Assembly: GCA_024679065.1 (NCBI GenBank)
Contig: JAGIQG010000001.1
Coordinates: forward strand, 126,046,001-126,110,000
Source of the DNA: Sphyrna mokarran
Taxonomy: Eukaryota
DNA: 64,000 bases
Direction of reading: 5' to 3'
Shown: in pieces, positions 1 through 43,559 of the stretch
How the letters are laid out: every line of letters starts with the position of its first letter
How positions within the stretch are numbered: position 1 is the stretch's first letter
Notes under the pieces: model-generated
What the model was told of the DNA's origin: nothing
Seen by the model: only the letters and a program-made list of their open reading frames with translations
The model's database searches: none
Program-made: the position numbers and the translations under genes

Positions 1-250
1 CAATGGTTAGATCTCAAATTTGAAAGTCAAGTTGGAGGGGAATTTGGCCTTGCAAAGATGTAAAAGGAGTTTATTAATGGGCTGAGGACATAGGTGTTGA
101 GAATGACCATGGAGGTGTTGTTGCCTATGCTTACTGACTGCAGTCTGTGGGTGAGGAAGTCTACGATTCAGTTAGAGAGGGAGGAGCTGAGCCCCATACG
201 ACAAAGTTTGAAGATCAATCTTGGAGGAATAATGGCATAGAGCTGTAGTC
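1..250 (-). mobile_element. Rex1/Babar-like LINE RT fragment (left part, interrupted by CR1)
   Basis: Minus-strand degenerate RT sequence. It continues at 1245-1490 after the CR1 insertion. Confidence 0.6.
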
Positions 251-1244
251 TACAAGTGGTGTACCTCAGGGGTCTGTTTTGGGGCCCCTGCTGTTTGTAA
301 TTTTTATAGATGATCTGGATGAGGGTATTGAAGGATGGATTAGTAAGTTTACAGATGACACTAAAGTCGGTGGAGTGGTAGATAGCGAAGAGGGGTGTTA
401 CAGTTTGCAGAGAGACTTGGACAAGTTGCAGAGCTGGGCCGAGAGGTGGCAAATGGAGTTTAATGTGGAAAAGTGTGAGGTAATGCACTTTGGCAGGAAT
501 AATAAATGTGTAGAGTATAGGGCTAATGGTAGGATTCTTAATAGTGTTGATGAACAGAGGGATCTTGGTGTATTTGTGCATAGATCCCTGAAAGTAGGCA
601 GTCAAGTCGATAAGGTTGTTAAGAAGGCATATGGAGTCTTAGCTTTTATTGGTAGGGGGATTGAATTTCGGAGCCGCAACGTCATGTTGCAACTGTACAA
701 AACTCTAGTGCGGCCGCACTTGGAGTATTGTGTGCAGTTCTGGTCCCCACATTATAAGAAAGATGTGGAGGCATTGGAGAGGGTACAGAGGAGGTTTACC
801 AGGATGTTGCCTGGTATGGAGGGCAGGTCTTATGAAGAGAGGCTGAGGGATTTGAGGTTGTTTTCGTTAGAAAGGAGGCGGCTAAGAGGAGACCTTATCG
901 AAACATATAAGATGATTAGAGGTTTAGATAGGGTGGACAGTGATAGCCTTTTTCCTAGGATGGAGAAAGCTAGCACGAGGGGACACAGCTTTAAATTAAG
1001 GGGTGATAGTTATAGGACGGATATCAGAGGTAGGTTCTTTACCCAAAGGGTGGTTAGGGAGTGGAATGCCCTGCCTGCAGCAGTTGTAGATGCGCCAAGT
1101 TTGGTGGCGTTTAAGAGGTTAGTTGATAAGTTTATGGAAGAGAAGGGAATGGTTTAGTTTGGAGGATCATTGCTTTTTATAATGGTCGGCGCAACATCGA
1201 AGGCCGAAGGGCCTGTTCTGCGCTGTAATGTTCTATGTTCTATG
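251..1244 (+). mobile_element. 5'-truncated young CR1 (HER1-like) LINE: RT C-terminus and 3' UTR
   Basis: Uninterrupted ORF 279-1157 preceded by TSGVPQG, with CR1 motifs SKFTDDTK, LYKTLVRPHLEYCVQFWSP, LERRRLRGDLIE and FFTQRVV. Ends in a (TTCTATG)n tail. Confidence 0.95.
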
Positions 1245-9300: not shown

Positions 9301-9760
9301 ACCCCCCCCCAAACCCCCTCCAATCCCATCCCCCCACAATCCCATCAACCCCATTCCCTATCCTATCCCACCCCACCTCTACCACCACCCCCACCCCACC
9401 CACCAATCCATCCCATCAACCCCGTCCTACCCCACCCTACCCACCAACTTCACTCCCCCCACCCCACCAACTCCACTCCTCCCACAACCATTTACCAACC
9501 CACCCTCACCATCCATCATCACCCGTCCTACCCACCCTACACCAACTTCATCCCCCCACCCCACCAACCCCCCCACCCACTCCCCCCACCCCACCATCCA
9601 CTCCTCCCCACCAACCCCATCTTACCAACCCCACCCCACTCACCAATCCATCCCATCAACCCCGTCCTACCCCACCCTACCCACCAACTTCACTCCCCCC
9701 ACCCCACCAACTCCACTCCTCCCCACCAACCCCACCTTACCCCACCCCACCAACCCCACC
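9301..9760. repeat. C-rich low-complexity tract, (CCCCA)-like, with an internal duplication at 240-bp spacing
   Basis: Nearly G-free plus strand. 9391-9483 is repeated almost exactly at 9631-9723. Confidence 0.9.
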
Positions 9761-40707: not shown

Positions 40708-41018
40708 TTTTTTTTGTCTTTATTCCAATTCAATCCAACCAAGTCCAATTCAGAGTCTCAACAAATTGAGACATTCCTGATCCAAGCTGAGAACACAGGG
40801 TTCTCACCTCCTGTTTTGGGCTTGATCTACATGGTCCAAGCTGATTGGAATAGATATAGCTCCTCCTCCAAGGCTTGATCTCATTTGCATCTTAGCCAAA
40901 AGGCTGAAATACCACTTTTAAAAATTGCTTCAAATGAAGTTAAAATGTAACCTAATGACTTAATGAAATACAGCATGTCAATACTACACTTGATCTTAGC
41001 AAAAGGCTGAAAAGCAAT
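40708..41018 (-). mobile_element. U2 snRNA-headed SINE-like element, copy A
   Basis: Minus strand begins ATTGCTTTTCAGCCTTTTGCTAAGATCAAGTGTAGTAT (35/39 to remembered vertebrate U2 nt 1-39). Second U2 segment at 40889-40907. Ends in AATAAA plus an A tract. Confidence 0.8.
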
Positions 41019-41119
41019 TCTTCAGTCTGACTCTGAGATGTTATCAGGGTTAATTCCTTTGCTACTTGCAGCCATTTCCTGATATCATGTAAAGAAAATA
41101 GAATTGGATGGAGATAGCT

Positions 41120-41425
41120 ATTGGTCTTTGACCTTTTGGCTGAGATTGGGTATAGTGTTGATATGCTGTGCTTGGTTGAGTCATAAGGTTACATTTTAGC
41201 TTCATTTAGCTTCACAGTAGCATCTGGGCCTTTTGGCTAAGATGCAAATGAAATCAAGCCTTGGAGGAGGAGCTATGCCTACTCCAATCAGCTTGGTTCA
41301 TATAAATTAAGCATAGGACAGGAGGTGAGAGTGACGTCTTGTCAGCTTGGATCGGGAATGTCTTAACTTGTTGAGACTTTGAGTTGGACTTGATTGGATT
41401 GAACTGGAATAAAAATTAAAAAAAA
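41120..41425 (+). mobile_element. U2 snRNA-headed SINE-like element, copy B
   Basis: Colinear with copy A over the full length. Degenerate U2 head, internal GGCCTTTTGGCTAAGAT at 41227-41243, AATAAA plus A tract. Confidence 0.8.
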
Positions 41426-41829
41426 TCTGTTTGTGCAAAATCCTCATGTGATGAGTCATCCAGATACAAGTGGGCCTTAACCAGGCCAGATTGAAGCATG
41501 GTTTTGTTTGCCTGCTCACTGGAGAGTGATGAATTCTGCTGCCAAGGGCTCAGATGAAAACCTCAGTGGGGCAGCAAATTGGAAACTGCTAAATGAGCAT
41601 CCACACCAAGATGCTGAGTGCACTGACTGAGTTGCCAGTCAGCCTCTATAATTGTAAGGGAGCATGGAGGAGTCTGGCTGCAACCAAGTGAAGGACATAT
41701 CACAGAGCTTGCCCTTTCTGCAGTCTATGCATCATCTCCCTGTCATGATGCAGACCCAGATACTGCCATTTCTGCCCCCATATTTGTTTTCTCCTGAGAG
41801 CACAGAATGCCAAAAGAAGATTTCATAAA

Positions 41830-42475: not shown

Positions 42476-43559
42476 CAAGTCTAGTTAGCACAGGAAATCC
42501 TTTTGGGTCTCACCAAAATAAATTCTGAATTCCCAAAAATGAAATAGTTAAATTCAATATTTTCTAACAACCAGACTTCCTGTATTTATCACAAAATGGC
42601 AATCACACATGGCTCAAAACTCCTGATTGGAGTCAGTACCCAAGCGTAAATCTGATCAGACAGAAAACTCACTTAGATTTACTTACATATAGAACATAGA
42701 ACACTACAGCACAAACAGGCCCTTTGGCCCACACGTTGCATTGATCATATCCATACCCATCAGGTCTATCTAGAACTTTCAATCCCATTAAATCCCATGT
42801 ACTCATCTTTTCAAAATTTGAAAATTATTCCTTTCTCAGGGTTACAAAGCCAATACAGAGTGGACAGGGCAAGCCCTTAATCCATTTCCTTTTTTGGTCC
42901 AAAAACCTGTTCAAATTCAAATTAAATCTAATACAGGATTGCCATAAAAGAGACATACTAAATTCAAGCTGACAAGAACAGTCATTACACCTGATCTCAG
43001 TTTAAAAAAAAGGCAAAGTTGTGAAGAGGTTCTGACTTTCAAAGAGGATCCTACAGAACTCTCTCAGGATAGCAATTCTTGCAGAGACTATTGAAGCAAA
43101 TCTGTATAGTAGCCCTGCTCCTTTTTATGGCCCTCAGCGCCGCATTCTGCAAGTGTTTAAAAGTCCCCAAGAATCTCAGTACGTTAGCAAATGAGTGTAT
43201 GAATGAATGGTGTGGCTCTTTAAACTGATAGATGGATGGAATGAGTGGGGATAATTAGAAAATCAGGTCAGAAATGTGACAGGAATCATGGGGATAGTTG
43301 AGAGATGGGGTGAGTCAGATGAGGGAAATTATGGGGGATCCTGGGGGCCAGATGGTAATCGGGGAGTTTAAGGTTTTCCCGTTGTTGGGCTGTTAATTTT
43401 GAGCTATTTGTTAAAATCCAAAACGTGAAATTGGTTGAAGTAGAAATTCTTATCATGGTTTCATAATTTATTTCATGCAAATTAGGAGGCGTGTCAGAAT
43501 TGTAAGAAGTTTTGTCTTTTAATGTGGAAAATTTGCAGAGTCCCTTAATATATCAGGGA

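Follow-up and report, generated by a model that had tools for sequence, protein, structure and literature searches.

The closest described systems to the repeats reported here are the SINEU retroposons of crocodilians and the Keno and Utopia retrotransposons. As set out in the available text of PMC4494074, SINEU-1 and SINEU-3 combine an snRNA-derived head with a length below 500 bp, a poly(A) tail and thousands of copies; SINEU-1 shows repeated 5′ additions and partial duplications, and SINEU-3 is an internally deleted form of U2. The same text describes tandem insertions, no tail in common with a LINE, oligo-T runs that exclude Pol III, and a Tx1 partner that was inferred from shared targets and has copies with U1 or U2 heads. 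It names SINEU transcription as an open question and places snRNA promoters upstream of the transcribed part. In their available text, PMC5786205 and PMC5381603 repeat that SINEUs are confined to crocodilians, and PMC7245038 cites the SINEU paper. For Keno and Utopia, the accessible portions of PMC4640811 and PMC6136364 describe insertions in which U2 from nt 39 forms the 3′ flank.

Each of the SINEU properties listed above recurs in a shark, Sphyrna mokarran, in a repeat that we call family A, a likeness drawn from the published description of SINEU. In the window (the whole 64,000-nucleotide stretch of DNA that was analysed), two family A copies lie close to one member of a second U2-derived repeat, family B. 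Family A is a real, discrete, high-copy snRNA-headed retroposon family, and very probably a Tx1-linked, SINEU-like one. Our main reading, to which we assign a probability of roughly 70% on sequence evidence, is that it is a non-autonomous retroposon made almost entirely of U2 pieces, likely expressed from the promoters of invaded U2 genes, with a resident Tx1 LINE, Keno-like but relaxed in its choice of target, as the likely source of its copying enzymes. The relevant features of the window are as follows.

40708..41018, minus strand: copy A, a whole family A element with its A tract (body profile E 6e-86).
40981..41018, minus strand: head of copy A, U2 nt 1-39 with GTAGTA kept (35/39 against the genome's own U2 gene).
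40951..40976, minus strand: nt 44-70 of copy A, antisense to U2 13-39, with a predicted fold-back onto the head.
40889..40912, minus strand: second U2 piece of copy A, U2 nt 4-27, stem-loop I.
40834..40884, minus strand: nt 137-187 of copy A, U2-derived but diverged, with homology to positions 16-66 of family B.
40726..40828, minus strand: nt 193-295 of copy A, likewise a diverged U2 piece, with homology to positions 19-121 of family B (window match E 9e-10).
40708..40724, minus strand: AATAAA and A-rich tail of copy A.
41019..41119, no strand: spacer of 101 bp separating copies A and B.
41120..41425, plus strand: copy B, a whole family A element with its A tract (body profile E 1e-78).
41120..41158, plus strand: head of copy B, U2 nt 1-39, more decayed than that of copy A (28/39 match).
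41163..41188, plus strand: antisense-U2 segment of copy B.
41220..41243, plus strand: second U2 piece of copy B, U2 nt 4-27 (22/24 match).
41248..41298 and 41304..41406, plus strand: two family-B-like (diverged U2) segments of copy B.
41408..41425, plus strand: AATAAA and A-rich tail of copy B.
41426..41431, plus strand: TCTGTT 3′ of copy B, identical to U2 39-44, with which the Keno target begins.
42819..43002, minus strand: family B copy (Rfam U2 28.6 bits; family B profile E 9e-54).

Copies A (minus strand) and B (plus strand) are thus inverted and head-to-head, with 101 bp between them. Much of what the initial annotation had read from the letters of this region stands: the two elements are colinear (copy A running 41018->40708, copy B 41120-41425, at 80-84% identity), both start at the U2 +1 position and end in AATAAA plus an A tract, GTAGTA is retained in copy A (it is absent from copy B), and a canonical Sm site is lacking, the motif RAT4-6GR being matched by just 3/60 family A copies. 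Its assignment of the heads to U2 fares less evenly against Rfam: copy A, at 34.6 bits (E 0.0029), falls short of the gathering score (46), and copy B is absent from the matches at E<=1, whereas two copies elsewhere reach 48.9 and 47.7 bits. No convincing target duplication surrounds either window copy, and the TCTGTT match to the Keno target may be chance. Window 42820-43022 could be taken for an ordinary U2 pseudogene, but that view is wrong: the sequence belongs to family B.

Elsewhere in the window, a 302-codon open frame (249-1157, plus strand) is 98% identical to one database protein and belongs to what we take to be a CR1-type LINE; this identity suggests that the LINE family is probably young. 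Among animal-named records, the best relatives of a LINE protein in the window come from sharks (71-74%), followed by rays (55-69%) and by birds and turtles (43-59%), as suits an elasmobranch host; two short bacteria-named records, probably contamination, score 66-75%. Positions 9305-9760 hold a degenerate, C-rich tandem repeat.

The family A element is about 305 bp long, and the possibility that only the two window copies exist is removed by one 29-mer, which has 594 exact matches genome-wide (control 0); a body search gave 3,033 first-look candidates. Because this 29-mer is carried by 14/35 copies of a best-hit sample and by 1/17 unselected copies, the 594 exact matches translate into roughly 1,500 to 10,000 copies, probably several thousand. 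We read 119 loci, comprising 30 best DNA matches and 89 of the 594 pattern matches, on four contigs; they yielded 136 pieces, some of which are halves of interrupted copies, and 11/119 loci held a second family A copy. At one locus (L026), two copies lie tail-to-tail with an A/T tract in common. Half or more of the sampled family words also occur in 11 public sequencing runs, which belong to six studies, cover no fewer than five organisms and may include a run from the source itself.

Might the family be only the sum of independent chimeric U2 retropseudogenes? U2 pseudogenes are indeed many in this genome, in which a U2 search gave 48 scored matches. However, the junctions and the body are common to all family A copies, no LINE with this body was found, and the 50 columns at which family B departs from U2, among 162 well-agreed columns, are common to that family. 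The shared internal junctions refute the idea of independent chimeras, to which we give almost no credence, and bear out the earlier view of a discrete family.

The ends of family A copies are those of a retroposon that starts at U2 +1, as had been proposed from the window: of the 118 pieces that extend to nt 60, 110 continue into the head and 57 run at least as far 5′ as nt 6, with 5′ ends spread by 5′ truncation, and the 29 copies that start at +1 to +3 have no upstream flank in common. Agreement of the column majority with U2 is mostly 0.8-1.0 across nt 1-39, lower at three CpG positions only; it is 0.92 at nt 39, 0.56 at nt 40, which is a CpG position, and 0.03 at nt 41. Target duplications, which had been suggested as a check, flank 22/113 copies versus 1.1% of mismatched pairs and were not seen in ~80% of the 113. 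The A tail averages 15 nt (103 copies) and is often interrupted by a C at a constant position, a hint that the A tract is templated. Unlike a classical Pol III SINE, family A has T4 runs in 59/59 copies and a B-box motif in 1/60, so that transcription by Pol III is not a route open to it. The octamer ATGCAAAT is present in 57/60 copies. Mean identity to the column majority is 0.927, with CpG decay, pairwise identity is 85.0%, and linked diagnostic columns indicate at least two subfamilies. Family A looks extinct or nearly so; this CpG decay, together with 0/2,628 pairs above 95% identity, weighs against the alternative, raised in the initial annotation, of an ncRNA family.

The portion first described as a 'non-U2 body' is instead U2-derived at element nt 44-70, 109-132, 138-188 and 193-295. 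When the element is set against the U2 gene of this genome, nt 1-39/40 correspond to U2 in the sense direction, nt 44-70 correspond to U2 13-39 in antisense (16 Watson-Crick, 7 G-U and 4 mismatched positions) and nt 109-132 repeat U2 4-27; only nt ~72-108 are left unassigned. The antisense segment pairs with U2 better than all 30 shuffles in 100/111 copies, and 7/11 departures from exact antisense preserve G-U pairing. For the 3′ segments, the family B profile matches nt 193-295 in 40/40 copies (E<0.001) and nt 138-188 in 37/40 (E<0.01), with 0 matches in the reversed control in each case. The U2 profile on its own matched 0/40 family A copies over nt 134-302, and 10/300 shuffles scored equally well in a pairwise U2 test of these nucleotides; U2 homology there therefore rests on family B as a bridge. 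A resemblance of nt 133-176 to the Tx1 5′ UTR (weak and post hoc, 0/200 permutations) was set aside, as family B explains this segment better.

Family B, the older of the two families, sampled at loci L280-L299 plus the window copy at 42819-43002 (minus strand), is about 215 bp long, with 1,232 first-look candidates in the genome and 76% pairwise identity. The U2 profile matches 19/19 copies read, stem-loop III is kept, and in kind the family is close to SINEU-3. Its homology with family A ends just 5′ of the family B Sm site, and GGAATAA terminates both families. From this anatomy we infer that deletion, duplication and the addition of sequence at the 5′ end may have produced family A from the lineage of family B.

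Predicted folding gives strong structure in four well-kept family A copies (z -2.5 to -5.0) and a weak fold for window copy A by itself (z -1.78). The predicted hairpin covers GUAGUA, which in U2 is the branch-point recognition sequence (PMC13019295, in its available text). These folds, the G-U pairing kept at 7/11 departures and the Sm-like site in 13/19 family B copies would all suit a source of a different kind, namely a variant snRNA gene under an snRNA-type promoter of its own, possibly functional (for example as an antisense U2 regulator), whose retropseudogenes are the copies we see. Against this, no conserved source gene appeared in the copies sampled, although a single intact gene could be missed in a sample of this kind; even the full-length copy nearest the column majority is no more than 96% identical to it, no pair exceeds 95%, and the linked columns point to more than one source. 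Moreover, U2 alone is matched among Rfam families, and family A is without an Sm site and 3′ stem-loops, its copies being decayed. We regard a variant snRNA gene as quite improbable and return to the reading of a U2-built retroposon.

Where U2 ends in the family A head, the initial annotation had pointed to a nearby insertion position of Keno and Utopia, and the junction coincides with their published site, U2 nt 38/39. A genome-wide search for an A tract followed by the exact Keno target gave 15 rows at 12 distinct loci (control 1), of which five are occupied by family A, four by a Tx1 tail and three by neither. Hence 9/12 exact-target loci hold the element or Tx1, in keeping with the link that had been suspected to a poly(A)-type Tx1 LINE and the Keno site. 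An earlier pattern that joined the element to the U2 3′ half gave 4 matches versus 2 in the control, and one of the matches was the element.

One of the copies inside U2 lies at the edge of a U2 gene array (G000:C949:17.32-17.40 Mb, ~8-kb units, with a Tx1 3′ fragment in each unit read). That edge holds two invaded U2 genes, one entered by family A and one by Tx1. At G000:C949:17389776-17390226, a family A copy lies within a decayed U2 gene unit in the order U2 upstream region (blocks of 85% and 81%), U2 4-37, body, A tract, U2 40-191 and U2 downstream region. The unit is 79-81% identical to reference copies and its promoter region is interrupted; this decayed copy is at most a candidate source gene. 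The U2 upstream region is present at 1/5 in-U2 family A copies, the other four being without U2 flanks. No target duplication was found around the whole in-U2 chimeras. Two of the four copies that have no U2 flanks (L271 and L274) are 5′-truncated, carry U2 39-126 or 38-87 and are without a full U2 5′ part upstream; they look like read-through retrocopies, though an insertion with loss of target would look alike.

Most dispersed family A copies lie outside U2-like sites. A general U2-like target for them was rejected (mean 3′-flank match 2.87 versus 2.90 in controls), and a TCTGT 3′ flank in 4/103 dispersed copies versus 2/311 controls (p 0.036) is one of five uncorrected tests; junction parsing of dispersed copies misread one locus, L040.

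The probable partner is a Tx1 LINE of about 5.2 kb, every copy of which is broken where read. It has RVT_1 and a ZCCHC3-type ORF1, with zf-RVT below the cut-off; its endonuclease has no direct Pfam match, and the region aligns by tblastn at 36-46%. The LINE aligns to APE-endonuclease Tx1-type proteins, its closest named homologues being amphibian and teleost (33-49%); no named Keno sequence is among 31 Tx1 homologues. Its tails use the U2 nt 38/39 site at several loci, most of the 30 tails examined lying elsewhere. A Tx1 tail stands directly 5′ of a family A copy in 5/89 cases, against ~0.01 expected, and downstream or opposite in 0, and four family A copies surround Tx1 sequence at one locus (L244). 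The two families are of similar age by pairwise identity (85.0% for family A versus 87.7% for Tx1, the Tx1 sample being biased to best hits). The 3′ comparison that the initial annotation had called for gave no shared tail (best E 0.45 against five long Tx1 copies), which sets family A apart from classical SINEs of the stringent type. The tail adjacency could also reflect any endonuclease that seeks A tracts. Dense Tx1 tails cluster at G000:C224:19.65-20.18 Mb (at least 12 exact matches in ~0.5 Mb). At G000:C1548:102.54-102.59 Mb and C794:7.97 Mb, fragments of Tx1 are found among U1 genes, and a cluster of U3 genes contains a Tx1 and a family A copy.

The 5′ ends of this LINE bring in a competing account of the family A head. 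Among 15 long Tx1 copies read (of 16 loci, with L255 left out), 13 are headed by U2, U1 or U3 pieces and two are without: seven open with a 5′ part of U2 that breaks off at nt 33-35, 53 or 58, and six carry U1 and/or U3 pieces and then U2 (from nt 29-34 to 51-55), with weak support for three of the U3 matches (E 0.003-0.13). The stacked U1, U3 and U2 heads occur at L243 and L250-L254; the available text of PMC4494074 makes no mention of a U3 head. At four loci (L246, L245, L256 and L249), the Tx1 sequence just past the U2 head shows partial complementarity to U2 nt 19-29, and pairing between it and the head is predicted, as in family A. Template switching, the published model for SINEU heads (PMC4494074, in the text available), could also have added the U2 head of family A, once, in which case the family and its Tx1 partner would be the same, the promoters would be chance host promoters and the in-U2 copies dead ends. 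The mixed Tx1 heads point in this direction, as do a doubled U2 head at L139 and a full 5S rRNA copy (L112:1957-2075, minus strand, 65.5 bits) directly 5′ of an element within U2 sequence. Several observations fit it poorly. The head spans U2 from +1 to the Keno cut site, with no upstream extension common to the 29 copies; in-U2 copies have a single head and not two; and L271 and L274 resemble read-through products. We consider template switching an unlikely sole origin of the head, and the promoters of invaded U2 genes remain our preferred explanation.

In this preferred model, source copies would be inserted in U2 genes at nt 38/39 and transcribed from the upstream U2 promoter, giving an RNA that starts at U2 +1 and continues through head, body, A tract and U2 3′ part. 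Tx1 enzymes would prime mostly in the A tract, yielding dispersed, promoter-less copies, and sometimes further down, yielding copies that carry the U2 3′ part. Transcription driven by the host U2 promoter would suit the 5′ end at U2 +1, the junction at the Keno site and the copy in a U2 gene, and we think it somewhat probable from the arrangement of these sequences. Family A itself would be an offshoot of the family B lineage that had lost the Sm site and the 3′ stem-loops, undergone duplication and repeatedly gained U2 heads at its 5′ end, and its fold-back hairpin would, if the predicted fold forms, bury the branch-site recognition sequence. More broadly, we tentatively entertain, at slightly under even odds, a fuller scenario of two successive shark families of almost wholly recycled U2, an independent and uncatalogued origin of snRNA-derived SINEs, whose members re-enter U2 genes at the Keno site for a promoter and whose RNA hides the branch-site sequence. 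The initial annotation had offered an independent SINEU origin and a non-autonomous U2-targeting element as alternatives; both seem to hold together, except that most dispersed copies lie off U2-like sites.

Several differences separate family A from the described systems. First, its host is an elasmobranch, whereas PMC4494074, in its available text, found no SINEU beyond crocodilians; in the literature searched, which includes few subscription journals, we found no shark or ray snRNA-headed SINE, and an entry in Repbase or Dfam may exist. Second, U2 itself is the target shared with Tx1, where for SINEU that target is a Mariner element; the body can be traced back to U2; and the antisense fold-back is not described for SINEU in the text available. 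Unlike SINEU heads, family A has no U1 piece. Third, the partner is, like Keno, of Tx1 type with a tail that abuts U2 from nt 38/39 at several loci, a site family A shares, but its targeting is much more relaxed than that given for Keno in the accessible accounts, most LINE and element copies lying outside U2; family A, for its part, has no coding capacity and does not represent a LINE with an internal deletion. Finally, Utopia uses the same U2 site, and its crocodilian members also show weakened specificity, but it has a restriction-like endonuclease (PMC4640811, available portions), in contrast to the APE-endonuclease Tx1-type proteins to which our LINE aligns.

There are several implications. 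If the model is true, a U2 gene promoter together with the enzymes of a resident LINE would explain how promoter-less elements are copied, and would answer how SINEU-type elements are transcribed; where the available text of PMC4494074 leaves the promoter open, the family A copy in a U2 gene is a concrete candidate. The element, a near-complete-U2 relative, a likely LINE partner and an in-U2 copy occur together in one genome, which makes the 'borrowed promoter' model directly testable. These families also show how, step by step, the gene of a splicing RNA gave rise to a retroposon, and they offer thousands of insertion markers for shark phylogeny.
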